A stretch of DNA of 24,000 bases from Clostridium sp. 'deep sea' (GTDB taxonomy: Bacteria; Bacillota; UBA994; PWPR01): positions 3,798,872 through 3,822,871 of the forward strand of contig NZ_CP063353.1 in assembly GCF_014931565.1 (NCBI RefSeq), read 5' to 3'. Below the pieces are notes generated by a model. That model did not search any database and was not told where the DNA came from. It saw only the letters and a program-made list of their open reading frames with translations. The first letter of the stretch is position 1. Each line of letters starts with the position of its first letter. The translations under genes and the position numbers were made by a program. Shown in pieces: positions 5,339 through 22,055 of this stretch.

Positions 5339-5346
5339 GACAATAA
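5339..5346. repeat. Right copy of the 8-bp target-site duplication GACAATAA
   Basis: Identical to 3668-3675. Confidence 0.85.
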
Positions 5347-5365
5347 ACCTAAAGCTGTACTGTTT

Positions 5366-6190: not shown

Positions 6191-6227
6191 AAAATATAAT
6201 TATATTGTTTTGTTGTAATGCTTTAGC

Positions 6228-6262
6228 AATAACTCACTTATTTAATAAGTGAGTTATTTTTA
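6228..6262 (+). terminator. Intrinsic terminator after the EamA gene
   Basis: Perfect 13-bp stem: AATAACTCACTTA (6228-6240) pairs with TAAGTGAGTTATT (6246-6258). Loop TTTAA, then TTTT. Confidence 0.8.
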
Positions 6263-6288
6263 CATATTACATTAATAACAATACTTAA

Positions 6289-6363
6289 TAGATCGAAATG
6301 GTCATTTATATTTGACATTTATAGGTGCTAGAGCATATACTAAATATAGACCGAAGTGGTCTA
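6289..6363. promoter_or_regulatory. Two related palindromic boxes bracketing the promoter (candidate TetR operators)
   Basis: TAGATCGAAATGGTCA (6289-6304) and TAGACCGAAGTGGTCTA (6347-6363). The second is a perfect 6-5-6 inverted repeat, TAGACC/GGTCTA. One box lies upstream of the -35 and the other just downstream of the -10. Confidence 0.5.
6312..6341 (+). promoter_or_regulatory. Putative sigma-A promoter of the TetR/phosphotransferase unit
   Basis: TTGACA (6312-6317), 18-nt spacer, TATACT (6336-6341), 45 nt upstream of ATG 6387. Confidence 0.55.
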
Positions 6364-6386
6364 GCGGTTCTAGAAAGAGTGACATA

Positions 6387-7007
6387 ATGGAAGATAAGTT
6401 TAAAAATATAGATTTAAATAATGAAAAAGTAAAAAGAATTGTTAATGCTGCGTATGAAGAATTTGCAAAGTATGGTGAAAATAAAGCATCGTTAAATAAG
6501 ATTCTTAGATCATCGGGTATTTCAAAAGGTGTTTTTTATCACTATTTTGAAGATAAGCAAGAGCTGTTTAATTTTTTACTATATTACTCGGTTAGTAAAG
6601 CAGTAATTGATTTAGAGCAGAATTTTGATTGGAATAACAACGATATAATTAAAAGAATATGTGATGTTTCTAAGTGTAGATTTGGGATTATAATAGAGTA
6701 TCCTTATTTAATGGAGTTTATTGAGCAATTTAGAGATAAAGTTTATAACGAAGCTCAAAAAAGTAATTTTAAGGTATTTAGAGAAAAGTTCTATACATTT
6801 AATATTGATTACTCAAAGTTTAAAGATCAATCAAAAGCAAAAGAAGCTATTCATATAATTCGCTGGACTTATAAGGGGTTAGGCATAGAGGTGCTTAATA
6901 AACACGGATATGTTTTAGATGACGCTATTATTGTAGAACTTATTAATTTATGTGATTTGTACTACCAAGTATTAACTTCTCATTTTTACAAACAAGTAGG
7001 TAATTAA
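6387..7007 (+). CDS. TetR/AcrR-family transcriptional regulator
   Basis: ORF track 6312..7007 begins at a TTG that is the -35 box itself. ATG 6387 is preferred. The N-terminal RIVNAAYEEFAKYGENKASLNKILRSSGISKGVFYHYFEDKQELF is a canonical TetR HTH. Confidence 0.85.
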   Translation: MEDKFKNIDLNNEKVKRIVNAAYEEFAKYGENKASLNKILRSSGISKGVFYHYFEDKQELFNFLLYYSVSKAVIDLEQNFDWNNNDIIKRICDVSKCRFGIIIEYPYLMEFIEQFRDKVYNEAQKSNFKVFREKFYTFNIDYSKFKDQSKAKEAIHIIRWTYKGLGIEVLNKHGYVLDDAIIVELINLCDLYYQVLTSHFYKQVGN

Positions 7008-7072
7008 AGCATAATAGAAACCTAGTACTGTTGTTAACAGACAGAGTACAGTTATTGAATAGGAGGGTTACT

Positions 7073-9634
7073 ATGATATATTATTTTAATGAAAAGAAAA
7101 TACCAGAATTGTCTCAAGTAGGTGGAAAAGCCAAAGCCCTTATTGAAACCACAAATGCGGGATTTCCTGTTCCAGAGGGTATAACACTATCTGTTGATTT
7201 TTTTAGTACATGGCTCAACACAATTAAGAGTTCAAATGAGTTTAAAGCAGTAATTCAAAATACTACCAAAGAAAACTGTGATGCAGTAAAGGCACTTGCT
7301 GAGGTTATGAACTTTAACGAATGGCAGAGTGAGTCTTTTAATAAGACATTTACAAATTTACAGGGTAATATTTTTGCTGTAAGATCATCATCTCCAGAAG
7401 AAGATCTTGAAGGTACTAGTTTTGCTGGCATGTACGAAACATATCTTGGTACAAATAGAAGTGAGATAGAAAAAACTGTGGCACGTGCTTTTTCGTCGTG
7501 TTTTGATTATAGGGTAATGCGGTATAAAAAACAGAACGCAATAGATCTTAATAATACTAGTATTGCAGTTATCATTCAAAAACAAATTGATTCGGAAATG
7601 AGTGGGGTAGGTTTTTCACTTAATCCACTTAACAACTGTTATGATGAGGTTGTAATTAATGCTTCGTTGGGGCTTGGGGAAGCTATTGTATCAGGTATTG
7701 TTACTCCTGATATGTATATTTATGATGCTGTAGACAAAAGAATTATTGATAAAAAGATTAGTAAAAAAGAAATAGCAATTTATCTTAAAGAAGATGGGGG
7801 TACTGTTAAGAAAGAGATACTTAATAAAGAAAAGCAGACACTTACAGATAACCAAATAGTAGAGCTCTCTAGTTTAATAAAAAAAGTAGAAGAGTACTAT
7901 AACAAACCAGTTGATACCGAGTGGGCTTATGAAAAAGATAAACTTTACTTGCTTCAGGCAAGGCCTATAACAAGCTATTTACCATTTTTTGAAGAGCTCT
8001 TAACAAAACCTGGGGAAAAGAAAAGATTTTATTTAGATTTAATGGTAATGACTCAAGGCTTTGATGAACCTATGAGTGTATTAGGTATGGAAGTTTGGTC
8101 TGAGATGTTATATAACATTAAGTTTGGAATGATGACACCCCAAGCTAAAGGTACTACTCCTGCATTGTATGGTCGTGAGTATATAAGTGTTACCGACTTA
8201 CAAAAGATTGTAGGTAAAAAAAATGTTATGAAAATGTTTAACTCGTATGATGGTAATGTTAAACGAATTTTTAATAAAATTGATTTAGATGCCCATTTTC
8301 CTAATAAAAAACCTGAAGGGGTAAAAGGCTTTAAAAGAAAAGCAATAAAAATGTTTTGTAAGATGTTGCCTGGAGTTTTTAAGGGTATATTTCTTAATTA
8401 TAAGGCAGTTATTAAAGACTATAATGAAATTGCAGATGACATTATTAACAGAGCAAAGAATCTAAAAAAAGAAGATAGTTTTAAATACAATGCTTCACAG
8501 ATATCTCAGCTATTAATGGAAACAATGGGAACAATATCAGCGATGTTTGCTGGCATGCTTGCCCAATCATCTATTAAAAAAATGTTTAAGGGTGAAGATA
8601 TAGAGAAAGAAATCATTGCTCTTGCTATGGATCTTGAGGGTAATCCTACTAGTGCAATGGGTCATTTACTAGTTAAAATGGCTTCATATGAGGAATTTCA
8701 AAATACAGCATCAAGGCAAGAGTTTATTAAAAAGTGCAAAGATAGAAATTACTCTAAAGAGTTCATGGCAGACTACAATGAGTTTATGGATAAATACGCT
8801 GTTAGGGGTATGAAAGAAATTGATATAGCATCACTAAGAATTTATGAAGATATTGGTTTGTTATACGTCAAGCTTATTGAAATAAACATTGAAGACAATC
8901 AAATTATAAAGGTTAAAGAAAAGCGACAGCAGGCTTATAATAAGCTTCTTAAAGCAGCAAAGGCCAAAGGCAAAGAAAAGAAATTTATAAAAGCAGCAAA
9001 TAAGTATCAAGCAACCTTTGGTTATCGAGAACACCCCAAGTATGTTATTGTGTACATCTTAGCCATGTTGCATAATATTTGTTTACAAATGGCAAACGAA
9101 TGGGTTAAAGAGGGTCGGTTAGAAGAACCATATCATATATTTGATTTACATGTAAATGAAATAGCCAAAGCTCAAAAAGATGCTAATTTTAATATGAAAG
9201 CGGCTAGGGTAAAGAACCTAAAAGGCTATCAAAAAGTAGCTCATGTTAAAAATTGGCCACTGGTAATAGACAGTAGGGGTAAAATATATAAACCTAAAAT
9301 GCAGATAAAAGATGGAGATATTGTAGGTGACCCAATAGCTCCTGGTAAGGTAGTTGGTAAAGCTAAGGTATTAAAAAGCCCTTATGAAAAACCGTTATAT
9401 TCAGGTGAGATTCTTATTACTAGGGCCACAGAGCCATCGTGGACACCTATATTCATAAATGCAGCAGGTGTTATTATGGAAATCGGGGGTCCACTACAGC
9501 ATGGTGGAATTATTGCCAGAGAGTATGGCATACCATGTGTAAGTGGCTTAATAGGTATAATGGATATGGTTAAAGATGGAGATTTAATAGAGGTTGATGG
9601 TTATAATGGGATTGTAAAAATACTAGAAAAATAA
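7073..9634 (+). CDS. PEP-utilizing phosphotransferase: N-terminal PPDK_N/ATP-grasp domain plus C-terminal swivel phosphohistidine domain, in a rifampin-phosphotransferase-like architecture
   Basis: Start ATG 7073 follows AGGAGGG (7061-7067). VGGKAKAL and VRSSSPEEDLEGTSFAGMYETYLG are PPDK_N motifs. The C-terminal ILITRATEPSWTPIF...GGPLQHGGIIAREYGIPCV is the PEP-utilizer mobile domain, with the His codon at 9500-9502. No PEP/pyruvate-binding TIM-barrel domain follows, so this is not a true PpsA. Confidence 0.8.
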   Translation: MIYYFNEKKIPELSQVGGKAKALIETTNAGFPVPEGITLSVDFFSTWLNTIKSSNEFKAVIQNTTKENCDAVKALAEVMNFNEWQSESFNKTFTNLQGNIFAVRSSSPEEDLEGTSFAGMYETYLGTNRSEIEKTVARAFSSCFDYRVMRYKKQNAIDLNNTSIAVIIQKQIDSEMSGVGFSLNPLNNCYDEVVINASLGLGEAIVSGIVTPDMYIYDAVDKRIIDKKISKKEIAIYLKEDGGTVKKEILNKEKQTLTDNQIVELSSLIKKVEEYYNKPVDTEWAYEKDKLYLLQARPITSYLPFFEELLTKPGEKKRFYLDLMVMTQGFDEPMSVLGMEVWSEMLYNIKFGMMTPQAKGTTPALYGREYISVTDLQKIVGKKNVMKMFNSYDGNVKRIFNKIDLDAHFPNKKPEGVKGFKRKAIKMFCKMLPGVFKGIFLNYKAVIKDYNEIADDIINRAKNLKKEDSFKYNASQISQLLMETMGTISAMFAGMLAQSSIKKMFKGEDIEKEIIALAMDLEGNPTSAMGHLLVKMASYEEFQNTASRQEFIKKCKDRNYSKEFMADYNEFMDKYAVRGMKEIDIASLRIYEDIGLLYVKLIEINIEDNQIIKVKEKRQQAYNKLLKAAKAKGKEKKFIKAANKYQATFGYREHPKYVIVYILAMLHNICLQMANEWVKEGRLEEPYHIFDLHVNEIAKAQKDANFNMKAARVKNLKGYQKVAHVKNWPLVIDSRGKIYKPKMQIKDGDIVGDPIAPGKVVGKAKVLKSPYEKPLYSGEILITRATEPSWTPIFINAAGVIMEIGGPLQHGGIIAREYGIPCVSGLIGIMDMVKDGDLIEVDGYNGIVKILEK

Positions 9635-9748
9635 TAAATACAAATAATTGCTGCATTAAAGATTACTTGTATATATTACCTTTAGTAGTGTATTGATTAA
9701 CAATGACTAGTGTTGTGAAAAAAAAATACATTTCAAAAAGAGAATGAG

Positions 9749-9781
9749 AAAGCATGGCATCTAATTAGATATCATGCTTTT
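9749..9781. terminator. Hairpin between convergent genes (possible bidirectional terminator)
   Basis: AAAGCATG (9749-9756) pairs with CATGCTTT (9773-9780). The inner palindrome is ATCTAATTAGAT, and the flanks are A/T-rich. Confidence 0.45.
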
Positions 9782-9804
9782 AATTTATAAATAATAGGTA
9801 TTAT

Positions 9805-10252
9805 TTAATGAGTTTCAACTAAAACTTTAAGCGTTGCCATAGCTATTTTTTGCAAAGCCTCGTAATTAATATTCTTAGAAATATCTGCTGGAGTATGGTA
9901 ATACTCGCTTCTAAAGTTAGCCATATCAGTTATAAAAAGACCCGGTATGCCTTTTTTCCAGAAAGACCAGTGATCAGATCTTAATACATCTGATGCATAT
10001 TTTTTTATTAAATTATATTCAAAGGGAAGTCCTAATCATATGTAGTCTATATTAATTGTTTCATCTTGGCAACTTGCTAAAAATCTATTTAGGATATCTG
10101 TAGAATTTTTTTTCACCAAATACTGCAATACAATTTCTTTTCACCTTTTCTAAATCAACATTTTTAGTTTTAATTAGCTGTTTAATATTATCATCAAAAG
10201 GTAACTCACTTGTTTTATTACTTTGTGGATCAACCCATCCCAAGCAGTCATA
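9805..10252 (-). pseudogene. Truncated, disrupted remnant of an M28-family (aminopeptidase-like) peptidase gene
   Basis: My own minus-strand translation ends ...LGLPFEYNLIKKYASDVLRSDHWSFWKKGIPGLFITDMANFRSEYYHTPADISKNINYEALQKIAMATLKVLVETH*, with the stop at 9805-9807. SDHxxF and YHTxxD are M28 C-terminal signatures. There is an in-frame TGA at 10036-10038. A frame change is needed at the T8/A8 run (10106-10113) to continue into ...NCIAVFGEK. No N-terminal half and no start codon are present. Confidence 0.55.
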
Positions 10253-10301
10253 TCATTCTATGATTTTATGGACTAATTAAATTAAATTTCATAAATTCTT
10301 G

Positions 10302-10856
10302 TTAACTATTTCGTTCCTCACGCAGTATGCCATAGCTTACAGAGTCGTAGTATTTACCATCTACAATCCTTGCTTTTCTGTATACCGCTTCACATTTTAG
10401 TCCAGTTTTTTCTGCTAACTTTATCATTCTTAAGTTTCCCGACCAAGTCGTAAGACCTAATCTTACTAGTTGAGGATATTTCTCAAATAATATATCAATC
10501 CACAATGGTAATGCCTGATAACCAATGCCTTTACCCCAGTATTTTTCATTAAAAATGACAATTCCAACTTCCATCCACAAGGTTTCTTTTGATTTCCAAT
10601 ACCAAGATACTTCACCTATAAGCTCATTAGTATCTTTATTGGCTATCATCTGTCTTACTTCATGAAAACCTTCATCCTTGTTTAACAGTTTTGTTCTTAG
10701 TTTTTTAATACAAGCTTTTAACTCTTCTTCGGTAGTTTGTTTAAAATAAGGTCCATTAAATTTATGATATTCTCTACTTGGGTGTTTTAAATAAAAGTAA
10801 TTCTCTAAATCATTAATGGTAATATTTCTGAGAACTATAGATGTATTATTAGTTAT
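10302..10856 (-). CDS. GNAT-family N-acetyltransferase (RimJ/RimL-like) with no canonical start codon at the expected position
   Basis: The ORF track gives only 10302..10649, starting at an internal Met. The frame stays open upstream as AIVITNNTSIVLRNITINDLENYFYLKHP...EGFHEVRQ-MIANK, a typical GNAT N-terminal half. The GKGIGYQAL acetyl-CoA motif is present. SD GAGAGGGG lies 8 nt upstream of an ATA codon (10856-10854). There is no ATG, GTG or TTG in frame before 10649. Confidence 0.6.
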   Translation of the reverse strand: MTNNTSIVLRNITINDLENYFYLKHPSREYHKFNGPYFKQTTEEELKACIKKLRTKLLNKDEGFHEVRQMIANKDTNELIGEVSWYWKSKETLWMEVGIVIFNEKYWGKGIGYQALPLWIDILFEKYPQLVRLGLTTWSGNLRMIKLAEKTGLKCEAVYRKARIVDGKYYDSVSYGILREERNS

Positions 10857-11007
10857 TACAATCGCCCCTCTCTGTTATGTATATTATAAGCTTTGAAGTG
10901 GGTGTTTTCAAGGTTATAGAAAACTTACGGACATTTGTCCTAGAATATTTAGCAGATTTGACTATACTTTAAGTAACTAAATGTATATATATGAAAGTGG
11001 TGTTATT

Positions 11008-12525
11008 ATGCAGTCCAGTCTTAATGATATTATTGATATTGTAATTAGTAAAACTATGACTCCACAGCAAAAACTAATTGCTTTAGGCAATACCGCAGAA
11101 AGGCTTATTTCACCTGTTGAGCTTCTTGGCTACACAGAAGAAGAGCTGGCATACATTAATAATCAAATGATATGTGATTTAAATGAGGGTTATGCTATTT
11201 ATCGACCACGTTATATTGTGCCAGATTATACTGTCTTTGCAGAAAAAGGCTGTCAGTTTTTAGAACTAGAGCCACCCAAAGATTTAGATGAACTATTAGA
11301 TGGCTTGCTTATTCTTTATAGTCATGTTCCATCAATAACATCCTACCCAGTATTTATAGGTCACTTAGATAGACTAATAGAGCCTTTTTTAACTAATGAA
11401 AAAACAGATTATCTTAAAATTAAACGTTTTCTTAACCATATAGATAAAACAATTATCGACTCTTTTTGTCACGCCGATATAGGTCCTTATGACAGTAAGG
11501 CTGGCAGATTAATATTAAAAGCAGTTGTGGAGCTAGAAAATCCAACACCTAATATGACAATTCGTTACGATAAAAACAAAACATCAAAAGATTTTGCACA
11601 GCTTGCGGCGGCTGCTTGTTTACAAGTATCTAAACCATCATTTTCAAATGACGTTTATTACAATAAAGATATTGGCAGCCATGCTATTTGTAGTTGTTAC
11701 AATGCTTTGCCTTTAGCAGGTGGAGCTTATACTTTGTCACGTTTACGGCTAGGTACTATAGCTAAGTCTGCTACTAGCTTAGACATGTTAATTAGTGAAC
11801 TACTACCAAAGGTAGCTAAACTTATGTTATCAATTATAGATAAACGAACTAGTTTTATTGTTGAAAAATCTAATTTCTTTGAGTCAAGCTTTTTGGCAAG
11901 TGAGGGTTTTATAAACAAAGATAATTTCACAGCAATGTTTGCTATTGTTGGTTTAGCAGATGCTGTTAATACTATGCTTGCTTTAGAGGGATTAAGTGAA
12001 ACATTTGGAACTTCTACAAGGGGTGATGAAATAGGTCATTTAATCATGAATACTATTAAAGAAATAGTTGAAAAACATGAAGGAAAATATGTTAGCAGAA
12101 CTAATAACAGATATTTGCTTCATGCTCAAGTAGGTGCCTCAATTCATGAAGAGGACAAAGACAATACTCCTGCTCATAGAATTAAAGTAGGTCAAGAGCC
12201 ATCTTTAGTTGAACACTTAAAACAATCAGCCCCATTTCATCAATATTTTCCAGCTGGCACAGGTGATTTATTTGCCTTTGATCAAACTTGGTTAAGTCAC
12301 CCAGAGGCTATAGTAGATATAATTGATGGTGCTTTTGTTAGTGGTTATCGCTATATAACAACCTATTTAAAAAATTCCGATTTAATTCGGGTTACTGGCT
12401 ATTTAGTTAAAAAAAGTGAAGTAGAAAAACTAAGAAATAATCAGGCAGTTTTAAGAGACACAACTGTGTTTGGTATGGGTACCGAAGATAATAGTAAAGT
12501 CTTTGACCGTAAACTAAGAGAGTAG
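11008..12525 (+). CDS. yjjI: YjjI-family glycyl-radical enzyme of unknown function
   Basis: About 505 aa, the size of E. coli YjjI. N-terminal ...TMTPQQKLIALGNTAERL and a C-proximal glycyl-radical fingerprint LIRVTGYLV (Gly codon 12397-12399). An activase gene follows directly. Preferred start is ATG 11008, the second Met of the ORF-track call. Confidence 0.75.
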   Translation: MQSSLNDIIDIVISKTMTPQQKLIALGNTAERLISPVELLGYTEEELAYINNQMICDLNEGYAIYRPRYIVPDYTVFAEKGCQFLELEPPKDLDELLDGLLILYSHVPSITSYPVFIGHLDRLIEPFLTNEKTDYLKIKRFLNHIDKTIIDSFCHADIGPYDSKAGRLILKAVVELENPTPNMTIRYDKNKTSKDFAQLAAAACLQVSKPSFSNDVYYNKDIGSHAICSCYNALPLAGGAYTLSRLRLGTIAKSATSLDMLISELLPKVAKLMLSIIDKRTSFIVEKSNFFESSFLASEGFINKDNFTAMFAIVGLADAVNTMLALEGLSETFGTSTRGDEIGHLIMNTIKEIVEKHEGKYVSRTNNRYLLHAQVGASIHEEDKDNTPAHRIKVGQEPSLVEHLKQSAPFHQYFPAGTGDLFAFDQTWLSHPEAIVDIIDGAFVSGYRYITTYLKNSDLIRVTGYLVKKSEVEKLRNNQAVLRDTTVFGMGTEDNSKVFDRKLRE

Positions 12526-12532
12526 GTCTATT

Positions 12533-13297
12533 ATGAGGTTACCGGTACGTCGAATAATTCCATTCTCTAATGTTGAGGGAGTAGGTAATAGAACAAGTAT
12601 TTTTGTTCAGGGCTGTAACGCTAATTGTTTATATTGTCATAATAGCGAAACCATTGTTATGAAGTGTGATGAAGCTAAGCTATACACCGTAGCTGAGTTG
12701 TTAAAGATCATTAAAACCAATATGCCTTTCATACGAGGAATAACGGTTTCGGGCGGAGAATCTACGCTTTATTATGAATTTTTAGTAGAGTTATTTAAAC
12801 GAGTACACGAGTTAAATTTAACCTGTTACGTTGACACTAATGGCTTTTATGACACCATTAAATTACAAGAGCTAATACAGCATACCGATAAATTTCTGTT
12901 TGATATTAAAGCTAGGGGTGAATCCCTAGCGCCTTTATGTTTTTCTAACTTATTACCTAAGTCTTCTGCTTTAGCTAAAAATTATTATGAGAGATTTATA
13001 ATTAATGAGCAACATTTTAATAATCTTGAAATACTATTAAAACAAGACAAGGTTGAAGAAGTGCGTTTGGTGTATATTAAGGGTTACTACGATGTTAAAA
13101 ATACTGTAAATAGAATAACTCAATTAATCAAGCCTTATACAAATGTAATTTTTAAGCTTATTAGGGTTCATGTTAGGGGGTTGCCTAAAGCAAGAGCAGT
13201 AAAGCTTAAAGGTGTTATTCCAAGCAAAGCAGAAGTAGATGAGTTAGAGTTGTATATTAAGTCATTAGGGGTGCAGAATATAGTAAAGATTTATTAA
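12533..13297 (+). CDS. yjjW: Glycyl-radical enzyme activating protein (radical SAM, YjjW/PflA-like)
   Basis: GCNANCLYCHN gives the CxxxCxxC radical-SAM cluster motif (12614-12637). GITVSGGEST is the SAM-binding GGE motif. The gene starts 7 nt after the yjjI-like stop. Confidence 0.8.
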   Translation: MRLPVRRIIPFSNVEGVGNRTSIFVQGCNANCLYCHNSETIVMKCDEAKLYTVAELLKIIKTNMPFIRGITVSGGESTLYYEFLVELFKRVHELNLTCYVDTNGFYDTIKLQELIQHTDKFLFDIKARGESLAPLCFSNLLPKSSALAKNYYERFIINEQHFNNLEILLKQDKVEEVRLVYIKGYYDVKNTVNRITQLIKPYTNVIFKLIRVHVRGLPKARAVKLKGVIPSKAEVDELELYIKSLGVQNIVKIY

Positions 13298-13307
13298 TAA
13301 ATAAATA

Positions 13308-13340
13308 ATATGGGGGACTTTTTGTCCTTCATATTATTTA
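13308..13340 (+). terminator. Intrinsic terminator after the activase gene
   Basis: ATATGGGGGAC (13308-13318), loop TTTTT, GTCCTTCATAT (13324-13334). All 11 positions pair on the plus-strand RNA, including two G-U pairs. On the minus strand those two positions become A-C mismatches. Confidence 0.6.
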
Positions 13341-14008
13341 TAACTAGCCTTTTGCTGAAGTTTGTTTATATCTATTACAGTTACTGCTGCATTTTCTCTT
13401 ATTAATATGCCTTCTTGCTCTAATTCTGCTAACACTCTTCTTAAGTGTCTTAAACTAATTCCAAGATAATCCGCAGTTTGATTGCTTTGTACATCAGGAA
13501 TCTTATTGCCATGAATTTTAGAGAGTTCATACAAGAATTTTGCTAAGCGGTTTTTAAGAGGATATAGTAAAGTTCTGGCATATTTAAAAGAAGTTCGTTT
13601 CATTTTTTGAGCTAGGTTTCGGCAAATATACTTGTAAAATTGACTATTGTGTTGAAAATATAAATCAATAGAGTTTACTGGAATAGCTAAAAGTGTACAG
13701 GGGCTTAGGGCTCTTACCTGATAATAATAATTGTCGTCATTAAAATACTCTATATCACCAATAACATCCCCTAAAATTATAATATCTAAAAGACTAAGTT
13801 TGCCTTTTTCGGATAATGGAACAATTCCGGCCTGACCATCAAGCAACACATAAAGATTTTCGACATTATCTTCACTATTAAATAGAACTTCACTAGCTGC
13901 AAAACTATGTAAAGACAACATACTAAGCAAATTATCATCAAAAATGTGAGTTAGGTTAAGGTCCTTTATATATTTTTTAATAATATCAGTATTCTTAGAT
14001 ATTTTCAT
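13334..14008 (-). CDS. Crp/Fnr-family transcriptional regulator (cNMP-binding-like domain plus C-terminal HTH)
   Basis: LYVLLDGQAGIV...LGDVIGDIEYF is the beta-roll effector domain. QTADYLGISLRHLRRVLAELEQEGIL is the HTH. There is no N-terminal Cys cluster, so it is not an FNR-type O2 sensor. ATG 14008 with AAAGGA upstream is preferred over TTG 14023. Confidence 0.8.
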   Translation of the reverse strand: MKISKNTDIIKKYIKDLNLTHIFDDNLLSMLSLHSFAASEVLFNSEDNVENLYVLLDGQAGIVPLSEKGKLSLLDIIILGDVIGDIEYFNDDNYYYQVRALSPCTLLAIPVNSIDLYFQHNSQFYKYICRNLAQKMKRTSFKYARTLLYPLKNRLAKFLYELSKIHGNKIPDVQSNQTADYLGISLRHLRRVLAELEQEGILIRENAAVTVIDINKLQQKASYK

Positions 14009-14171
14009 GTTAAGTCCTTTCAATAATATATCATTAATATAAAGTTTAATACTATAAAAGTCAAAAAAAGATAGTGTAAATCAAGTTAGCCAAGAAATAC
14101 TAATTGAAGTATAATAATATTATATCAACAAAACATATGTTTAACTATTATTAAGTATTTAAGGGGTTAAA

Positions 14172-15260
14172 ATGGAATTTCACAATAAAAAATATAACAC
14201 CGTTGCAGACTGGTATATTGGAGGCTTAGCCAAATTTTTAAGCCCCCTATATGAAGTAGTGCCAGAGAGCATTAGCATTAAAAAAAGTAAGTTTATTAAA
14301 GCTGAACAAGAGTTACATAGTTACATTAATAATCTATATCAAAATATGCATAATAATGCAGAGTTATATAATATACCTTTAGCAACTTTTGAGGGCAAAG
14401 ACTTTAACAAAAAAAGACTAAAGGTGCGTAAAGTTATCAACATCATTTTAGATTTTTTGTATAAACTTGCTCAACTTGCTACCCTAGAAGAATGTAGCTT
14501 AGTTTTAGCAATAGAAAACTGGCATAAAATAAGAGATGATAAAATAAAAAAGCTTAAATCCGAAAAAAAATTTAATAATCTTGTTTTGATATTAGGTTTT
14601 ACAGTAAATGTAAAGCAAAATATAGTTGTTATTAATCATAAAAATTACCCAGCTATGTTAATAGCCCTTAGTTACTATGCAAAGTTATGTAGCCAAGATA
14701 AAAAATATGGTTTTAGATACTTTTATCAGCTGGATTTTAGAAGATTTAATAACTATAAATTACAGATGAACGATGTTATAAACTCATTACCATTAGAGCT
14801 TAAAATAATGGTAACAGAAACAGATAATTTGTTAATGAAGTTAAAGTATCGCAAAAAAATAGAGCTTTATGAGGACTTTGGATATCGAGTAGCCTACTCC
14901 AATAAAGCAGGTGTGGTATATTATATTCATATTAATTCCTATAAAATAGATACTTATTATCATTATTTGCGTTGGGTTTTAAATTCAGCTCAATCGGATA
15001 AATGTATTAACACATTGATTCAAGAAGGTAAACAAAATATAGTAGATTACCTAAAACATAATATAGTACAATGTGACCCCAATTGTATACCAGGTTATGG
15101 TGCTAAATCACCAGAGCAATGCCAAGCACGTATTCATATACCATATTATGATCTTTATGTTTGTAAAGATAAAGGCTGTTTAGTAGGAATAGCTAGTTAT
15201 GAATTTGAGTATATTCAAGTTGTTTTAGAAATAATTAATGAGATTATTTCTAAAAAATAA
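14172..15260 (+). CDS. Hypothetical protein with a Cys-rich C-terminal segment
   Basis: Intact 362-aa ORF with RBS AAGGGG. I recognise no family. The C-terminal segment is QCDPNCIPGYGAKSPEQCQARIHIPYYDLYVCKDKGC. Confidence 0.6.
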   Translation: MEFHNKKYNTVADWYIGGLAKFLSPLYEVVPESISIKKSKFIKAEQELHSYINNLYQNMHNNAELYNIPLATFEGKDFNKKRLKVRKVINIILDFLYKLAQLATLEECSLVLAIENWHKIRDDKIKKLKSEKKFNNLVLILGFTVNVKQNIVVINHKNYPAMLIALSYYAKLCSQDKKYGFRYFYQLDFRRFNNYKLQMNDVINSLPLELKIMVTETDNLLMKLKYRKKIELYEDFGYRVAYSNKAGVVYYIHINSYKIDTYYHYLRWVLNSAQSDKCINTLIQEGKQNIVDYLKHNIVQCDPNCIPGYGAKSPEQCQARIHIPYYDLYVCKDKGCLVGIASYEFEYIQVVLEIINEIISKK

Positions 15261-15322
15261 AGATATAAAAATATAAAGTTGCTAAAAAATTTTATTTTTC
15301 TATAAAATATAAGGAAACCTAT

Positions 15323-15841
15323 ATGACAAAACTTAATAGAAAACAATTAAGGATTAATAACTATGATTACTCTAAACCTAACTATTATTTTGTAACTATC
15401 TGTACGTTCAATATGAATAACCTCTTTGGAAGAATAATTAATAACAAAATGAATTTAAATAGTAGTGGTGTAATAGTAAAAGACGCTCTTTTAACAACAA
15501 TATCTTATAATAAAACTTTTAAGCTTGATAAATATATTATTATGCCTAATCATGTACATGCTATTATTATTAAAAATAATATTTTAATAACAAAAAATTT
15601 ATTACCCAAGTCCACCACATCAATAAGTGATTTTATTTGTGAATTTAAGTCAAGAACTGTACATAAGTATATTCGTGCTGTAAAGAATAAAGAATGTCCA
15701 CCATTTAATAAAAGAATATGGCAACGTAGTTTTTATGACCATATTATAAGAAATCAACAGGATTACCAAAGAATTTGCAAATACATAAACACAAATCCTC
15801 AAAAGTGGCAGCAGGATAAATACTTCAATGCAAAAATATAA
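15323..15841 (+). CDS. rayT: REP-associated tyrosine transposase (RAYT), IS200-like HUH/Y1 family
   Basis: 172 aa. N-terminal NYDYSKPNYYFVTICT. HUH motif at MPNHVHAII (HVH codons 15551-15559). The C-terminal block IWQRSFYDHIIRNQQDYQRICKYINTNPQKW aligns with my recollection of the E. coli RayT/YafM block IWQPRFWEHAIRNTKDYRHHVDYIYINP. The candidate catalytic Tyr codon is at 15782-15784. Confidence 0.85.
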   Translation: MTKLNRKQLRINNYDYSKPNYYFVTICTFNMNNLFGRIINNKMNLNSSGVIVKDALLTTISYNKTFKLDKYIIMPNHVHAIIIKNNILITKNLLPKSTTSISDFICEFKSRTVHKYIRAVKNKECPPFNKRIWQRSFYDHIIRNQQDYQRICKYINTNPQKWQQDKYFNAKI

Positions 15842-15851
15842 AAAGTGATAA

Positions 15852-16900
15852 GCGGTGGAGGGCTTTATGTCCTCCATAATTAATAAGATAACCCACTCAT
15901 TAAAAAAGGCAGACACAAGGCCTGTCACTACGTAGAGTAACAGAAGTAAAATCCGTAGTGGAGGGCTTTATGTCCTCCAAAATTAATAAGATAACCCCCC
16001 TCAAAAAAAGAAGGCAGACACAAGGCCTGCCACTACGAAAGTAACAGAAGTAAAAGCAGTAGTGGAGGGCTTTATGTCCTCCATAATTAATAAGATACCC
16101 CCAAAGAAAACAAGGCAGACACAAGGCCTGCCACTATGTAGAGTAACAGAAGTAAAATCCGTAGTGGAGGGCTTTATGTCCTCCATAATTAATAAGATAA
16201 CCCCCTCATTAAAACAAGGCAGACACAAGGCCTGCCACTACGAAGAGTAACAGAAGTAAAATCCGTAGTGGAGGGCTTTATGTACTCCATAATTAATAAG
16301 ATACCCCCCATTAAAACAAGGCAGACACAAGGCCTGCCACTACGAAGAGTAACAGAAGTAAAATCCGTAGTGGAGGGCTTCATGTCCTCCATAATTAATA
16401 AGATACCCCTTCATTAAAACAAGGCAGACACAAGGCCTGCCACTACGAAAGTAACAGAAGTAAAAGCAGTAGTGGAGGGCTTTATGTACTCCATAATTAA
16501 TAAGATACCCCTTCATTAAAACAAGGCAGACACAAGGCCTGCCACTACGTAGAGTAACAGAAGTAAAATCCGTAGTGTAGGGCTTTATATCCTCCATAAT
16601 TGATAAAATAACCCTTCATTAAAACAAGGCAGACACAAGGCCTGCCACTACGAAGAGTAACAGAAGTAAAATCCGTAGTGGAGGGCTTCATGCCCTCCAA
16701 AATTAATAAGATAACCCACTCATTAAAACAAGGCAGACACAAGGCCTGCCATTACGTAGAGTAACAGAAGTAAAAGCCGTAGTGGAGGGCTTTATGTCCT
16801 CCAAATTAATAAGATACCCCCAAAAAAACAAGGCAGACCCAAGGCCTGCCACTACGAAGAGTAAAGTAATAAGCCGTAGTGGAGGGCTTTATGTCCTCCA
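15852..16900. repeat. Array of 21 REP-like hairpins: 11 Y-type on the plus strand and 10 Z-type inverted. The period is 97-104 bp. The layout is BIME/REPIN-like.
   Basis: The Y hairpin TGGAGGGC-TTTAT-GTCCTCCA starts at 15856, 15959, 16063, 16165, 16269, 16371, 16473, 16576, 16679, 16783 and 16880. Each copy except the first is preceded by GTAG. Between Y copies sits GGCAGACACAAGGCCTGCCACTAC, whose reverse complement is GTAGTGGCAGGCCTTGTGTCTGCC. The array starts 11 nt after the RAYT stop codon. Confidence 0.9.
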
Positions 16901-17034: not shown

Positions 17035-17721
17035 TTGAAAACATTAATACTTACAAAAATAAAACCCATAGATTATAAGGATCTAAAAGATGTTAGCAGG
17101 TTTATTTCCGAAGAGAGGCTTGCTCGTGCAGAGCTATTTACAGACAATAACAGAAAAAATGAATTTATTACAGTTGAGATAGCTGCTTCATATTTTGTAT
17201 CAGAGGTTTTTAATATATCTTTACCTAAATTTAATGGCAAAGCGGGTGAAAAACCCTATTTATGTAATTATCCTAATATATCAGTTAGTCGTTCATATGC
17301 TGATAATTATGTAGTATTTGCCTTAGAAAATAATTTTGATATTGGTGTAGATTGCGAAAAAATAAAAAGCTTTGATAAAAACACCCTTAAGTATTTTTTT
17401 ACAGAACAAGAGTGTAGATATATTAATGACTCAAAGTGTCCTAATCTTGCTTATGCAATTATTTGGACTCGCAAAGAAAGTTATCTAAAGTGTACTGGTC
17501 AAGGTCTTGCTTTTGCTCTCAGTAAGCTTGATGTTACACCACAAAATAATTGGGTAAATAGTAATAGTAGGTATCCAATTTATAAGAACAACGATCAAGT
17601 TAAGAGTAAATTTATTAATAGCTATATATATAATGATCTTGTAATATCTCTCTGTAGTACTAGTGATAACAATAGCCCTACATTAACATTACAAGTTAAA
17701 AACATGAATTTAGGAGTATAG
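17035..17721 (+). CDS. Sfp-type 4'-phosphopantetheinyl transferase
   Basis: TTG start 8 nt after GGAGAG (17021-17026). PPTase motifs are GVDCEKI (the GxD(I/C)E motif), FTEQECRYI and WTRKESYLKCTGQGL (the W/F-x-x-KE-S/A-x-x-K motif). The 228-aa length fits Sfp type rather than AcpS type. Confidence 0.8.
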   Translation: MKTLILTKIKPIDYKDLKDVSRFISEERLARAELFTDNNRKNEFITVEIAASYFVSEVFNISLPKFNGKAGEKPYLCNYPNISVSRSYADNYVVFALENNFDIGVDCEKIKSFDKNTLKYFFTEQECRYINDSKCPNLAYAIIWTRKESYLKCTGQGLAFALSKLDVTPQNNWVNSNSRYPIYKNNDQVKSKFINSYIYNDLVISLCSTSDNNSPTLTLQVKNMNLGV

Positions 17722-17723
17722 CA

Positions 17724-19229
17724 ATGACAAAAACTATTATTGATTTTTTCGAAAATACAGCATTAAAGTATCGTTCTAAAATAGCAGTAGGCGATAAAAA
17801 CGCCAGTTTTACTTATGAGCAACTTATGGAAAAAGCCCAAAAAGTAGGTGCAGTTATTGCAGAAAAAGGCTTTATTAAAAGACCTATTGCGATATTGATG
17901 AATAGAACATGCAAATTGCCTGCAACAATGTTAGGTGTTTTATATAGTGGTAACTTTTATGTAGTTTTAGATAGTAACTCAACCTTTAATAGGCAACAGA
18001 AAATAGTAGACATTCTTAGGCCATCTGCTGTAATATATGAAAGTCAGTTTAATAATATAGTAAATCAGTTAAATGGTGAATTTGTGAAATTAGAGTTAGA
18101 AAAAATAGAACCTACAGCTAATGGTTACAAAAAACTCAATAAAGCAAAAAATCAAATACTTTCAACAGACCCTGCTTTTTCGATATTTACATCTGGTTCT
18201 ACTGGGTTCCCTAAGGGTGTATTAATAACTCATCAAAATGTTATATCATACATTGATTGGTTTACAACAAGTATGAAAATATCTAGTAATACAGTGTTTG
18301 GATCTCAAACTCCACTGCACTTTAGTATGTCGGTATCTGATTTATTCGCTACCTTAGCTAAAGGTGGCACATATCATATGATACCCAAAGAGTACTTTGT
18401 GTTTCCTGCAAAACTAATTGAATTTATGAACGAGCGTAATGTAAATACAATATATTGGGTGCCAACAGCGCTTGCTATTGTTGCCAAGTTTAATTTATTT
18501 AAATATACCAAGCCAACATCTTTAAATAAGGTATTATTTGCAGGTGAAGTTATGCCTATTAAATACCTAAATTATTGGAGAAGCTATTTACCTAATGTTA
18601 TGTATGCAAATTTATTTGGTCCAACCGAAACCACTGATATTTGCACCTATTATGTGGTTAATCGTGAGTTTGAGGATACCGAAAGTTTGCCAATAGGTAG
18701 TCCTTGTGAAAACTGTTGTGTTTATTTAATAAATGAACAGGGTGAACAGGTAGCTGATGGTGACATAGGAGAGCTCTATGTTTCAGGAGCATTTGTTGCA
18801 AAGGGTTATTACAATAACTATAAAAAAACTAAAGAGAGTTTTGTTCAAAATCCCTTACAATCGGCATACCCTGAGTTGGTTTATAAAACAGGTGATTTGG
18901 CAAGAAAAAATGAATACGGAGAGCTTGAATATTTGGGAAGAAAAGATTTTCAAATAAAGCGTAATGGTTATCGCATAGAGTTAGGCGAAATTCAGGCTGC
19001 ATTTGCTAAAGTTAAAGGTATAGAGTTATCAGTTTGTTTATATGATGAAAAGCAACAACAGATAGTATTGGTTTATGAAGGGGCTACACATTTAAAAGAA
19101 CAGTTAAAAAAAGTAGCTAATCAAAAACTTCCAGCATATATGCGCCCAGATAAATATATAGCTACTGATTGTTTCCCTAAAAACGCTAATGGAAAAATAA
19201 GTAAAAAACTATTGAAAAATATTATATAA
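17724..19229 (+). CDS. DltA-like carrier-protein ligase (stand-alone ANL adenylation enzyme)
   Basis: 501 aa, the size of DltA. Motifs: A3 FTSGSTGFPKGV, A5 NLFGPTETT, A7-A8 YKTGDLA...GRKDFQIKRNGYRIELGEI, A10 NGKISKK. It aligns without gaps to my recollection of B. subtilis DltA around FGSQTPLHFSMSVSDLFATLAKGGTYH. Starts 2 nt after the PPTase stop. Confidence 0.85.
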   Translation: MTKTIIDFFENTALKYRSKIAVGDKNASFTYEQLMEKAQKVGAVIAEKGFIKRPIAILMNRTCKLPATMLGVLYSGNFYVVLDSNSTFNRQQKIVDILRPSAVIYESQFNNIVNQLNGEFVKLELEKIEPTANGYKKLNKAKNQILSTDPAFSIFTSGSTGFPKGVLITHQNVISYIDWFTTSMKISSNTVFGSQTPLHFSMSVSDLFATLAKGGTYHMIPKEYFVFPAKLIEFMNERNVNTIYWVPTALAIVAKFNLFKYTKPTSLNKVLFAGEVMPIKYLNYWRSYLPNVMYANLFGPTETTDICTYYVVNREFEDTESLPIGSPCENCCVYLINEQGEQVADGDIGELYVSGAFVAKGYYNNYKKTKESFVQNPLQSAYPELVYKTGDLARKNEYGELEYLGRKDFQIKRNGYRIELGEIQAAFAKVKGIELSVCLYDEKQQQIVLVYEGATHLKEQLKKVANQKLPAYMRPDKYIATDCFPKNANGKISKKLLKNII

Positions 19230-19248
19230 AAATGGAGAGAGAAATATA

Positions 19249-19476
19249 ATGAACAAAATAATTGAGATATTGTCAGAGATAATACCAGGAGAAAATTTTG
19301 AAACCGCTAACAACCTTGTAGACGGAAAAATTTTAACATCTGCCAATATAATTCGTCTTGTTGCTAGTTTAAATGAGCAGTTTGATATTGAAATAACACC
19401 GCTATATTTGGTACCTGAAAATTTCAATTCAGTAGAGAGTATTTTTAATTTAGTGACTTTGCTTGACGAGGAATAG
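19249..19476 (+). CDS. Small carrier protein (DltC-like, 75 aa)
   Basis: RBS GGAGAGAG. GKILTSANIIRLVASLNEQFDI aligns with DltC GLLDSFGTVELLLAIENRFDI, with the Ppant-acceptor Ser conserved (codon 19339-19341, context TS rather than DS). Confidence 0.75.
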   Translation: MNKIIEILSEIIPGENFETANNLVDGKILTSANIIRLVASLNEQFDIEITPLYLVPENFNSVESIFNLVTLLDEE

Positions 19477-19481
19477 TATTC

Positions 19482-21038
19482 ATGCCTAATCGGATTTTTG
19501 TTTATTTTATACTGTATTTAGTCATGAATACCCTTATATACGCTGTTTGCCCTCGCAAACAGCGTTATATTGTGTTATTAATGTCTAGTTTAATTTTTTA
19601 TAGTGTTTTTAGTGGATATGGTGTTTTGCTGTTGTTATGCACTATTATTACTACACATTACACAGCTCTAGTTATGGATAAAATAGGGTTAGCATACATT
19701 ACTACTGGGTTAGCTAAGCCCGAGCGAAAAAAACTAAAAGCCCAAATTAAGCATAAAAAACGCCTTGTATTATGTTTGTGTATTGTTATTAATGTGGGCA
19801 TTTTGTTAATAACAAAGTATTTTAATTTTTTTTCAAGGTCTTTTAGTAAACTTATTGCTACTTTTGGTCTTAATTTGCCTGTTCATGTAATAAAAATTAT
19901 TTTACCTTTAGGTATTTCTTACTATACGTTACAAGCATTGAGTTATGTAATAGATGTATTTAGAGGTAAATATCCGGCAGAGAAAAATATTTTAAAGACT
20001 GCTTTATTTATTGGATTTTTTCCGCAACTGCATGAGGGACCATTTGGGCGATATGATAAGCTTATGCCTGTTATGTCAGCAGGTAAACAAATAAATTCTG
20101 AGAATTTGTATGAGGGAATTGCTCGTTTTTTGTGGGGCTTTTTTAAGATATTTATGGTCGCTAATCGGGTATCATTAATATCTGATATGGTCTTTAATGA
20201 TTACAGTTCATATGGTGGTTTTGCCATTATTATAGGCATAGTTGCCTTTACAATACAGCTTTATGCAGAGTTCTCTGGCTATATAGACATAGCTGTAGGT
20301 ATTGCTAAGGTATTAGGTATAGAGTTAGCTAAGAATTTTGATATGCCCTTTATATCACAAAATGTAGCTGAATTTTGGCGTAGATGGCATATTTCATTAG
20401 GATTATGGTTCCGTGATTATGTTTTTTATCCTGTTTCTACGTCAAAAGTAATGTCTAAATTAAGAAAAAAAGTAGGCTCTAAACTTGCAAATTTTGTATC
20501 TATAAATTTAGCAATGTTAACAGTATGGTTTTTAACAGGTATGTGGCATGGAGCAAGTGTAAAATACATTGTTTATGGTCTGTATTATTTTGCACTAATA
20601 ATGCTTTATAATTTGCTTTCACCCTATATAGAAAAATTATTGAAAAAGTATGAGATTAGTGCACATAACAAAATTCTTATAACAGTGAGAATAATAAAAA
20701 CACTTATACTTGTTGGAATAGGTATGTTAATTTTTCGAGCCAAAAATCTAAGAGTTTTTAGAATTATGTTAATGTCTGTTTTTACAAAAGGTACAATGCA
20801 ATTTAATATACTAGCTAAAATTGATTTAAAAGACTTAATTATACTTTGTATTTCTTTTGGATTAATGTTATTACCAGTATTTCTTAAGACTAAAAATATT
20901 GAAATAGATACTAAATATAATTCACTTTCATCTATTAAAAAGTATTGGATTTGCTTTACTGCATTTAGCATAATTGTTATTTTTGGAGCTTATGGATTTG
21001 GATATCTTCCGCCAGACCCAATATATGGAGGGTTTTAA
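19482..21038 (+). CDS. MBOAT-family membrane O-acyltransferase (DltB/AlgI-like)
   Basis: Polytopic 518-aa protein. It carries MBOAT signatures FWRRWHISLGLWFRDYVFYP (catalytic His) and LTGMWHGAS. Confidence 0.9.
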   Translation: MPNRIFVYFILYLVMNTLIYAVCPRKQRYIVLLMSSLIFYSVFSGYGVLLLLCTIITTHYTALVMDKIGLAYITTGLAKPERKKLKAQIKHKKRLVLCLCIVINVGILLITKYFNFFSRSFSKLIATFGLNLPVHVIKIILPLGISYYTLQALSYVIDVFRGKYPAEKNILKTALFIGFFPQLHEGPFGRYDKLMPVMSAGKQINSENLYEGIARFLWGFFKIFMVANRVSLISDMVFNDYSSYGGFAIIIGIVAFTIQLYAEFSGYIDIAVGIAKVLGIELAKNFDMPFISQNVAEFWRRWHISLGLWFRDYVFYPVSTSKVMSKLRKKVGSKLANFVSINLAMLTVWFLTGMWHGASVKYIVYGLYYFALIMLYNLLSPYIEKLLKKYEISAHNKILITVRIIKTLILVGIGMLIFRAKNLRVFRIMLMSVFTKGTMQFNILAKIDLKDLIILCISFGLMLLPVFLKTKNIEIDTKYNSLSSIKKYWICFTAFSIIVIFGAYGFGYLPPDPIYGGF

Positions 21039-21988
21039 TGAAAAAACATAAAATGAATTTCAAAATATTATGTTGTGTAATCTTATCTTTATCACTTTAC
21101 ACTTATATTTGTGTAATTTTTACCCCCAAATCAATTAATGATTTAGGCGGTAAAAACTATTATGGCGGAATGGGATTTTTAGCAGAACCCGAAAATTCTC
21201 TTGATGTAATCATGTATGGTAATTCAGATGTATATTCAGGGTTTATACCTGCATTGATGTATGAGAAATATGGTTTCTCTTCATATGCTTCTGGTGTGCA
21301 ACTTCAAAGTATCAAGAAAATAAATCACTTGTTAAAAGCGACTTTAAAAAAGCAACAACCAAAAATAGTAATCCTTGAGGTGGATTGTCTTTACGATAAA
21401 GACAGTTGTTTAATAAATAATAATAACCTTTTTCTTGCTTCGGTCATGTATCATACCCGCTGGAAAGAGCTCAAACTACGTGACTTTTATACACTCCCAA
21501 ACAGAAAAAATAAGTATGACATAACAAAAGGTTATGAGCACTCGAATTATGTTTATAAATTTAATCCCGGAAAATATATGGGGCATAGTACTGACAAGCC
21601 AGCTGCAATACCAGCAAAAAATATTAAACAGCTAAAGTTTTTTCTTAATACTTGTAGTAAAAAAAATATTAAAGTTATATTTTTAGAACTACCTAGTTCG
21701 GTATCTTGGACCTATGCCAAACATAATTATATAAGTAAAATAGCATCGGAAAATGATATTGCTTTTATTGACCTGAATATTCCAAACAGTAATTATCAGG
21801 CCGATTTTCAAAATGATTTTCGAGATAATGGTAATCACTTAAATGTATATGGTGCAAAAAAAACTACAACATTTATAGGGGATTTTATAGAAAAGAAGTA
21901 TAAAAATATAATCATAGAAGCTAAGAAAGCAACCGTATTAGACTATTGGAGAGATGTAGTATCCTATTACTATGAACAACTTAGTTAG
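21038..21988 (+). CDS. DltD-like membrane-anchored SGNH-fold esterase/acyltransferase partner
   Basis: Its ATG overlaps the MBOAT stop codon (TAATG). It has an N-terminal TM anchor. MYGNSDVYSG parallels the DltD IYGSSELS Ser block. The C-terminal FRDNGNHLNVYGA is an SGNH-type D-x-x-H block. Confidence 0.65.
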   Translation: MKKHKMNFKILCCVILSLSLYTYICVIFTPKSINDLGGKNYYGGMGFLAEPENSLDVIMYGNSDVYSGFIPALMYEKYGFSSYASGVQLQSIKKINHLLKATLKKQQPKIVILEVDCLYDKDSCLINNNNLFLASVMYHTRWKELKLRDFYTLPNRKNKYDITKGYEHSNYVYKFNPGKYMGHSTDKPAAIPAKNIKQLKFFLNTCSKKNIKVIFLELPSSVSWTYAKHNYISKIASENDIAFIDLNIPNSNYQADFQNDFRDNGNHLNVYGAKKTTTFIGDFIEKKYKNIIIEAKKATVLDYWRDVVSYYYEQLS

Positions 21989-22023: not shown

Positions 22024-22055
22024 GTAGTGGAGGGCTTTGTGCTCTCCATTTTTTT
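22024..22055 (+). terminator. Solo Y-type REP copy acting as the intrinsic terminator of the dlt-like operon
   Basis: GTAG-TGGAGGGC-TTTGT-GCTCTCCA (22024-22048) is followed by T7 (22049-22055), 36 nt after the stop at 21988. It has the same GTAG head and stem as the array units. Confidence 0.8.

Follow-up and report, generated by a model that had tools for sequence, protein, structure and literature searches.

A RAYT gene and an adjoining tandem array of GTAG-headed hairpins form a probable REPtron in Clostridium sp. 'deep sea'

The genome of Clostridium sp. 'deep sea' contains a gene for a REP-associated tyrosine transposase (RAYT, or TnpA_REP; 172 aa, positions 15323–15841, + strand) that is followed directly by a tandem array of short hairpins (15852–16900), most of which carry the GTAG head of repetitive extragenic palindromes (REPs). 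Positions refer to the window, i.e. the whole 24,000-nt stretch of contig NZ_CP063353.1 (3,798,872 to 3,822,871, forward strand) that we analysed. We consider it very probable that this locus is of the REPtron type, namely a domesticated, single-copy RAYT of the HUH/Y1 kind together with a local cluster of its cognate REPs. A cognate RAYT/REP pair, with the array likened to a bacterial interspersed mosaic element (BIME), had been proposed in a preliminary description made from the letters of this DNA alone, and the GTAG foot, the alternation of two hairpin types and the presence of such hairpins at six out of six homologous loci all bear it out; its guess at an AT-rich, Firmicute-type genome was equally right, as the host belongs to the Clostridia within the Bacillota. 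The first array element begins 10 nt past the TAA stop of the RAYT gene (not 11 nt, as had been stated), and the REPs thus lie within ~1 kb of the gene.

The 172-aa protein is identical to QOR35244.1/WP_195159658.1, which is encoded on the 3.83-Mb replicon of Clostridium sp. 'deep sea' and whose annotation as "transposase" hides the system from genome surveys. It possesses a HuH motif (N76-H77-V78-H79), the pair W133-Q134, and a catalytic tyrosine, Y154, in the C-terminal motif YINTNP (Y154-I-N-T-N158-P159). The pattern Y---NP is the signature of class-2 (TnpA_REP) proteins, whereas IS200 transposases have Y---Q (PMC6006769). Among profiles, the best family was the NCBIfam model NF047646 (REP_Tyr_transpos) with 67.1 bits, under the equivalog cutoff of 80; Pfam Y1_Tnp was matched with 30.3 bits (cutoff 23), and the NCBIfam IS200 model with 22.2 bits (cutoff 55), about one third of the score of the RAYT model. 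The only sequence match in the PDB (phmmer) was TnpA_REP from E. coli (4ER8), in an alignment spanning WQ..F..H.IRN..DY.....YI..NP. In that alignment (4er8_A), the E. coli residues W94/Q95/E100/H101/R104/Y115/N119 correspond to W133/Q134/D139/H140/R143/Y154/N158; in the E. coli enzyme W94, Q95, E100, H101 and R104 contact GTAG, the Tyr is catalytic and the Asn is essential, and the change from Glu to Asp at the position of D139 also occurs in subclasses 2.5 and 2.7 (PMC6006769). An AlphaFold2 model built from 54 homologues (pLDDT 88.7, pTM 0.83) has 4er8_A as its best Foldseek match (E-value 1.6e-7, TM-scores 0.60/0.62, rmsd 4.0); the transposases of ISDra2 and IS608 rank behind it, and the rmsd values of the IS200/IS605 transposase matches are much higher. 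The family is large, with 22,428 representatives (clustered at 50% identity) at E≤1e-3. Judged by its sequence and modelled fold, the protein is a class-2 TnpA_Y1 (RAYT), as had been proposed earlier, and by analogy with the studied enzymes it is predicted to bind and cleave GTAG hairpins.

The same results bear on the alternative that the gene encodes an IS200/IS605-type transposase and that the hairpins are the subterminal ends of a mobile insertion sequence (IS). The TnpA proteins of IS608 and ISDra2 do have the same fold and HUH/Y1 chemistry, and the IS200 model does give its weak match of 22 bits, but the protein has Y---NP rather than Y---Q and scores three times higher with the RAYT model. 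Moreover, a left-end hairpin is missing on the upstream side (a search for GT[AG]G hairpins 5' of the RAYT gene found none, either in 15261–15322 or further upstream in the window), neither tnpB nor a second RAYT copy was found in the window, three diverged strains have the gene at the same site with the same neighbours, and ten tandem dimers are unlike the end of an IS. We regard this explanation as highly improbable and have rejected it on account of the motifs, the synteny, and the lack of tnpB and of a left end.

Tandem Repeats Finder reports a single array (15855–16900) with a period of 102 nt, 10.2 copies, 91% matches and a score of 1683, in agreement with the ~103-bp unit and 10 to 11 repeats noted before; a description with period 206 scores about equally. 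The array is extragenic, in the interval that separates the RAYT stop (15841) from the start of the next gene (17035), and it is built of two hairpins, Y (GTAGTGGAGGGCTTTATGTCCTCCA) and Z (GTAGTGGCAGGCCTTGTGTCTGCC). At ≤2 mismatches Y has 11 matches in the array, all on the + strand and 5 of them exact; outside the array the window holds one further match, at 22024, with 3 mismatches, against none expected (100 shuffles). Z has 10 matches, all on the - strand of the array, 6 of them exact, and again shuffles predict none. The count of 21 hairpins given earlier is therefore correct. A custom scan for perfect hairpins headed by GT[AG]G found 15 in the window, compared with a mean of 0.01 in shuffled sequences.

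The elements follow the order Y-(linker1-Z-linker2-Y)x10, so that Y (+) and Z (-) alternate ten times, with linkers of ~33 and ~22 nt, and Y stands at both ends. Each Y-Z pair is a heads-out dimer (GTAG...CTAC) with a ~33-nt linker, and the ~102-nt unit, repeated ten times, is such a dimer plus linker, i.e. a BIME-like arrangement. The Y copies are located at 15852–15876 (copy 1, head degraded to GCGG), 15955–15979, 16059–16083 and 16161–16185 (copies 2–4, all exact), 16265–16289 (copy 5, 1 mismatch, with the loss of one stem pair), 16367–16391 (copy 6, loop change), 16469–16493 (copy 7, 1 mismatch), 16572–16596 (copy 8, 2 mismatches), 16675–16699 (copy 9, where the G.T wobble has become G-C), 16779–16803 (copy 10, exact) and 16876–16900 (copy 11, exact, which closes the array). 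The Z copies, on the opposite strand, are found at 15908–15931 (copy 1, 1 stem mismatch), 16013–16036 (copy 2, exact), 16114–16137 (copy 3, head ATAG), 16218–16241, 16320–16343, 16423–16446, 16525–16548 and 16628–16651 (copies 4–8, all exact), 16732–16755 (copy 9, head GTAA) and 16832–16855 (copy 10, loop change). The claim that GTAG precedes every hairpin holds for 18 of the 21 elements: two of the Z copies have a mutated head (ATAG at 16137 and GTAA at 16755), and the first Y begins with GCGG, a 3-nt deletion, as a 98%-identical strain (contig L024) reads GTAG at the same site. Central units are 92–96% identical and edge units 79–90%.

Y and Z share a common design, with the start GTAGTGG, a 7-bp stem beginning with GG, a 5-nt loop, and one G.T wobble beside the C-G pair that closes the loop: Y reads GTAG-T-GGAGGGC-TTTAT-GTCCTCC and Z reads GTAG-T-GGCAGGC-CTTGT-GTCTGCC. 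Three stem positions differ between the two, and each difference is compensated on both arms. Across the array the stems have 7–8 bp with one G.T, and the loops 5 nt. As single-stranded DNA, Y folds with -6.1 kcal/mol (z -4.6) and Z with -5.2 kcal/mol (z -2.9); alternatively, a Y-Z pair can fold into one long imperfect hairpin that resembles a REPIN (-12.2 kcal/mol). Owing to the wobble, either hairpin is better on the strand that bears GTAG than on its complement, which fits strand-specific recognition as single-stranded DNA or as RNA.

Evenly spaced palindromes and short open reading frames (ORFs) on the - strand might also call to mind a structured non-coding RNA, a CRISPR-like array or a gene for a repetitive protein, and we find each of these scarcely credible. 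Rfam yields no match at gathering scores and matches at chance level at E≤1, so the RNA-family reading was rejected. The "spacers" of a CRISPR-like array would have to be unique, but here the linkers are themselves repeated at 80–96% identity and no cas genes occur in the window; that candidate was likewise discarded. The unit lengths vary from 97 to 104 nt, include non-multiples of three and break every frame, and the ORFs that cross the array are short (≤92 aa) and overlapping; the coding reading was rejected on the unit lengths. The preliminary description was right that no coding sequence explains the array and that it is richer in G+C than its surroundings (0.38–0.42 vs ~0.30).

Support for a cognate relationship comes from six independent homologous loci with RAYTs of 40–49% identity (L044, L045, L048, L050, L052 and L056). 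In 6/6 of them GTAG hairpins adjoin the RAYT gene, lie in frame within it, or do both, and the segments VGADSISA and ADIESAPT in the alignment of the homologues are translated REPs. The hairpins are concentrated at the genes: 17 lie within the gene ±400 nt, vs 1 in 44 kb elsewhere in these loci (2.18 vs 0.023 per kb). Between loci the stems vary by compensatory changes (6/8 pairs) with GTAG invariant; the percentage of paired positions is biased upward, as the elements had been pre-selected by a hairpin finder.

The nearest sequence family is subclass 2.4 of TnpA_Y1 (Quentin 2018), which corresponds to RAYT group 4 (Bertels 2017). In-frame REPs inside the gene, between HuH and the Tyr, are described as unique to this subclass (PMC6006769); it is reported from "various phyla", among them Cyanobacteria, Bacteroidetes, Chlorobia, Caldilineae and other scattered ones, with REPtron-like flanks (PMC6006769, PMC5581495), the flanking repeats of group 4 reportedly being low-copy only (PMC5581495). 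Our homologues share with it the in-frame REPs between HuH and Y, GTAG REPs within ±1 kb in low copy, patchy taxa, and the motif YIxNNP (P0003, P0014, P0023, P0025 and P0032). NHVH and WQ of the window RAYT match the consensus of subclass 2.4 (NH[IFV]H, WQ), whereas its YINTNP has T where YIxNNP has N, no in-gene REP was found in the gene, and its REPs are short, not "long" or "double-foot". We thus describe the 172-aa protein as a compact form that is closest to subclass 2.4, without counting it as a proven member.

Close relatives retain the synteny of the locus. A Crp/Fnr-type regulator, a hypothetical gene for a 362-aa protein (hyp362) and the RAYT gene occur in this order in the window, in strain L024 (98% amino-acid identity, with the same upstream genes; its contig breaks inside the first Y) and in the contigs L057/L058 (92% amino-acid identity). 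In the latter, nucleotide identity amounts to 95.8% for the RAYT gene and to 89.9% for the hypothetical gene next to it, and RAYT is followed by at least 2 Y-Z units in which Y and Z are 100% identical to those of the window and both linkers have acquired substitutions and indels. With hairpins invariant and linkers drifting, we conclude that the hairpins are constrained or homogenised and the linkers are not. The RAYT genes of the window and the 92% relative differ by 15 amino-acid-changing and 7 silent substitutions. Because homologous loci carry GTAG hairpins of their own and the array persists with invariant hairpins in a relative, the RAYT probably acts on the array as its cognate enzyme, and a cognate RAYT/REP pairing is supported by these sequence comparisons.

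Alignment of the window (5339–15881) with L024 revealed zero divergence over the EamA, TetR, PPDK-like, GNAT and YjjI genes (~7 kb), with divergence rising toward the RAYT gene: the radical-SAM gene is 99.2%, Crp 99.7% and hyp362 97.7% identical, and RAYT has 3 differences, all amino-acid-changing. This pattern might reflect either a recombination boundary or a hot spot beside the array. The hyp362 gene (14172–15260, + strand) encodes a protein with a Cys-rich C-terminus, for which neither Pfam nor NCBIfam has a matching family; all three relatives keep the gene in synteny with RAYT, and it is fast-evolving (89.9% nucleotide identity vs 95.8% for RAYT). The contigs L024, L057 and L058 all end inside the array, which illustrates how REP arrays break short-read assemblies.

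Outside the array, a solo Y-like REP (GTAGTGGAGGGCTTTGTGCTCTCCA) is present at 22024–22055 on the + strand; it is identical to Y at 22/25 positions, retains the stem with one G.T and continues into a run of seven T. It is situated in intergenic DNA at the downstream end of a dlt-like operon, 36 nt past the stop of the last ORF (21038–21988), and looks like the intrinsic terminator of that operon. It is also the sole strong GC-rich intergenic hairpin in the window apart from the array. The exact 25-nt Y, followed by a T-run, was found 8 nt after the stop codon of an ABC-permease gene in three metagenome contigs (L030, 741–765; L037, 2168–2192; L054, 3157–3181). These contigs are from a different AT-rich organism: the nearest named relatives of the permease are from Tissierellia/Sedimentibacter (~80% identity) and include no protein of Clostridium sp. 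'deep sea', for which reason we rejected the idea that they come from the window species. An identical Y across genera suggests either a shared RAYT specificity or horizontal transfer.

The pattern GTAGTGGAGGGCNNNNNGNNCTCCA was scanned once over genome contigs and once over metagenome contigs; it matched a conserved coding site in genes of Prochlorococcus and Microbulbifer, REP-like elements of high G+C in Chloroflexi, and two of the loci with a solo Y, L030 and L037. Searches of viral contigs, plasmids and phages gave nothing. The GC-rich element GTAGTGGAGGGCCTTGTGCCCTCCA, which has the head and stem of Y and the loop of Z, is found in GC-rich genomes at L002, 7970–7994, and L015, 1315–1339 (one contig of a Chloroflexia metagenome-assembled genome), and in L025 and L033, with variants in L027/L043, L021, L011 and L029; L033 has next to it, as its partner, another hairpin with the loop CACAAGG. 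These elements resemble what one would expect of REPs that belong to Chloroflexi RAYTs of the group-4 type, and a tblastn search of loci L001–L043 found no RAYT within the 8-kb loci of the GC-rich GTAGTGGAGGGC... copies.

The genome of Clostridium sp. 'deep sea' also encodes a divergent RAYT paralogue (P0005, QOR35307.1; 186 aa, 46–53% identity). Its lineage (L056 P0002, 49% identity) has REP types of its own, GTAGGGGCTAACCTCGTGTTAGCCT and GTAGGGTCGAAGCTGGTCTTCGCCT, which are found upstream, downstream and in frame within the paralogue-type gene, and around QOR35307.1 itself one would expect a separate REP family of the GTAGGGGC[AT]AA..-type. In L056 the layout of Y, linker and inverted Z flanks the paralogue-type RAYT as well. 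On the 3' side of that gene, at ~800–860, a duplicated RAYT fragment (..SNHVHAIIII.., then an in-gene-type REP) is lodged between REP dimers, which indicates that the reiterated unit drags coding DNA along. Both paralogue types co-occur in the metagenome sample ERZ23487456 (L056, L057).

Given how few dispersed copies there are, one may ask whether the array is an ordinary satellite or a cluster of terminators, generated from a GC-rich pair of terminator-type hairpins by slippage or unequal crossing-over, next to a RAYT that has become an inactive or otherwise employed relic with no present action on it. In its favour are the terminator-like scores of Z, which runs into TTGTTTT on the - strand, and of the solo Y copies, which run into stretches of T; the closer resemblance among central units than among edge units, as under recombinational homogenisation; and the 15:7 ratio of the RAYT gene mentioned above. 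Against this stand the GTAG head on 18/21 elements, needless for a terminator, the GTAG-contact and catalytic residues, all of them intact, the GTAG hairpins that each homologous RAYT examined has at its own gene, the occurrence of the same 25-mer at an unrelated locus of another organism, and the invariance of the hairpins while the linkers drift. On balance we think that this explanation is unlikely.

Several points nevertheless weigh against the REPtron assignment and its cognate, active RAYT. The 15:7 ratio does not speak for strong purifying selection on the enzyme, which also misses the NCBIfam RAYT equivalog cutoff (80 bits). Its subclass assignment rests on the homologues, since the window gene has the YINTNP motif and no in-gene REP, and the covariation between homologous loci carries the upward bias noted above. 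Binding and cleavage are predicted from enzymes of only ~20% identity. There is no 5' REP, unlike in the E. coli REPtron, and the 24-kb window contains one dispersed Y copy only. Finally, expansion of the array by recombination alone, without RAYT, could also be conceived.

If the locus is a REPtron, the steps by which it works may be sketched from the enzymes of E. coli, S. maltophilia and Marinomonas, on which the following is modelled (PMC3333891, PMC8266576). Each hairpin would fold in single-stranded DNA, probably on the lagging-strand template; a RAYT monomer would bind the stem-loop and read the 5' GTAG, which would act as a recognition or guide sequence, via the patch W133/Q134/D139/H140/R143. 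Y154 would then cleave a nearby dinucleotide and could rejoin strands; in the studied enzymes the dinucleotide is CT, cut between C and T (PMC3333891, PMC8266576). The rise of the cumulative GC skew in the window and the orientation of the genes suggest that the + strand may be the leading-strand sequence, in which case Y hairpins would be exposed on the lagging-strand template. Strand transfer might occasionally seed new REP copies elsewhere, such as the solo Y at the 3' ends of genes, and might promote local recombination, which together with unequal crossing-over of direct Y repeats would expand and homogenise the array. The Y/Z dimer with its ~22-nt linker would in this way have been amplified ten times in tandem just downstream of RAYT. 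A Y at either end of the array and a greater likeness of the central units, both of which are observed, are what one expects from unequal exchange among direct Y copies. The terminator-like tails make exaptation possible, with solo Y and Z perhaps put to secondary use as terminators or as hairpins that stabilise mRNA, a role that has been suggested for REPs in general.

A bolder extension of the REPtron assignment, which we put forward tentatively and consider rather doubtful, is that the array is a "nursery" of RAYT-driven local amplification in an otherwise REP-poor Gram-positive anaerobe, and that Y reached the Tissierellia/Sedimentibacter-like lineage by horizontal spread of RAYT and REP or by mobilisation of REPs across species. 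If true, this would offer a minimal low-copy system in which the birth, amplification and exaptation of REPs as terminators could be followed directly.

To our knowledge almost all experiments on RAYTs have been done with three proteobacterial enzymes. Of the systems described, the REPtron of E. coli K-12 (tnpA_REP/yafM, 4ER8; group 2/subclass 2.2) offers a close parallel in organisation, with a single-copy HUH/Y1 gene beside GTAG-headed imperfect palindromes that fall into two sister types, Y and Z, inverted relative to each other, BIMEs in variable number downstream of the gene, conserved GTAG-contact residues, catalytic Tyr and Asn, and a non-Watson-Crick position in the stem. Variation in the number of 3' BIMEs and their "local amplification" next to tnpA_REP have been reported (PMC3333891). 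However, the two proteins are only ~20% identical and differ in subclass (NHVH/WQ/YINTNP here, DHLH/WE/YIHYNP there), the hairpins of the window are short (7–8 bp, 5-nt loop, G.T) and not long and bulged, a 5' BIME is absent, the 3' side carries 21 REPs as compared to three REP pairs in MG1655, and the host is an AT-rich Gram-positive.

Clusters of GTAG-REPs in which heads-out (HH) dimers, 20–100 bp apart, are reiterated in tandem together with a linker were described by Di Nocera (2013), HH being the commonest arrangement (PMC3733652). The window array resembles them in its HH dimers and in its G.T pairs, which are common in the stems of those clusters; it differs in that none of them is from Bacillota and in that it is fused to the RAYT stop and has 10 units of 80–96% identity. 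With the REPIN/RAYT system of Pseudomonas fluorescens (group 3/subclass 2.5) it shares an inverted REP doublet as the replicating unit, inherited vertically together with a single-copy RAYT, but Pseudomonas genomes have hundreds to thousands of dispersed REPINs, in contrast to the local array and very few solo copies here.

The earlier suggestion that such a locus is under-described overstates its novelty: the size of the array and its clostridial host are new, whereas tandem REP dimers and the non-proteobacterial subclass 2.4 are already in print, as are the RAYT-REP association, REPtrons, sister Y/Z REPs, tandem BIMEs and reiterated dimers (PMC6006769, PMC3333891, PMC3733652). In the papers that we consulted we found no REP-associated RAYT from Firmicutes, with only group 1 (without REPs) reported in Clostridia, and no text matching Firmicute examples in the supplementary files of Quentin 2018. 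The novelty is modest and lies in the clostridial host, in a cluster of this size and regularity, with 21 REPs joined directly to the stop codon, and in the compact enzyme. With this locus the range over which REPtrons are documented comes to include Bacillota, and Y, Z and the solo variant make a compact set of substrates for the biochemistry of the little-studied subclass 2.4.

Of the other genes in the window, the dlt-like operon that follows the array (17035–21988, + strand) encodes an Sfp-type 4'-phosphopantetheinyl transferase, a DltA-like adenylation enzyme, which passes the cutoff of TIGR01733, a 75-aa carrier with weak similarity to ACP/DltC, a DltB-like MBOAT protein and a 316-aa protein without a family. 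None of them reaches the cutoffs of the Dlt equivalogs, and the operon may encode a distinct type of carrier-dependent acylation. A perfect 11-bp palindrome unrelated to Y and Z, ACGCTGTTTGC-CCTC-GCAAACAGCGT (19540–19565), occurs within the MBOAT gene, in its 5' part. Upstream of RAYT, a YjjI-family glycyl-radical enzyme and its radical-SAM activase are encoded at 10981–13297 (+ strand), adjoining the Crp/Fnr-type regulator (13334–14023, - strand); the YjjI protein shows 100% identity to the one from Clostridium sp. 'deep sea'. An intact transposase of the Mutator/IS256 family (4033–5256, - strand; Pfam Transposase_mut, 401 bits) is located just upstream of the point at which the alignment with L024 starts.

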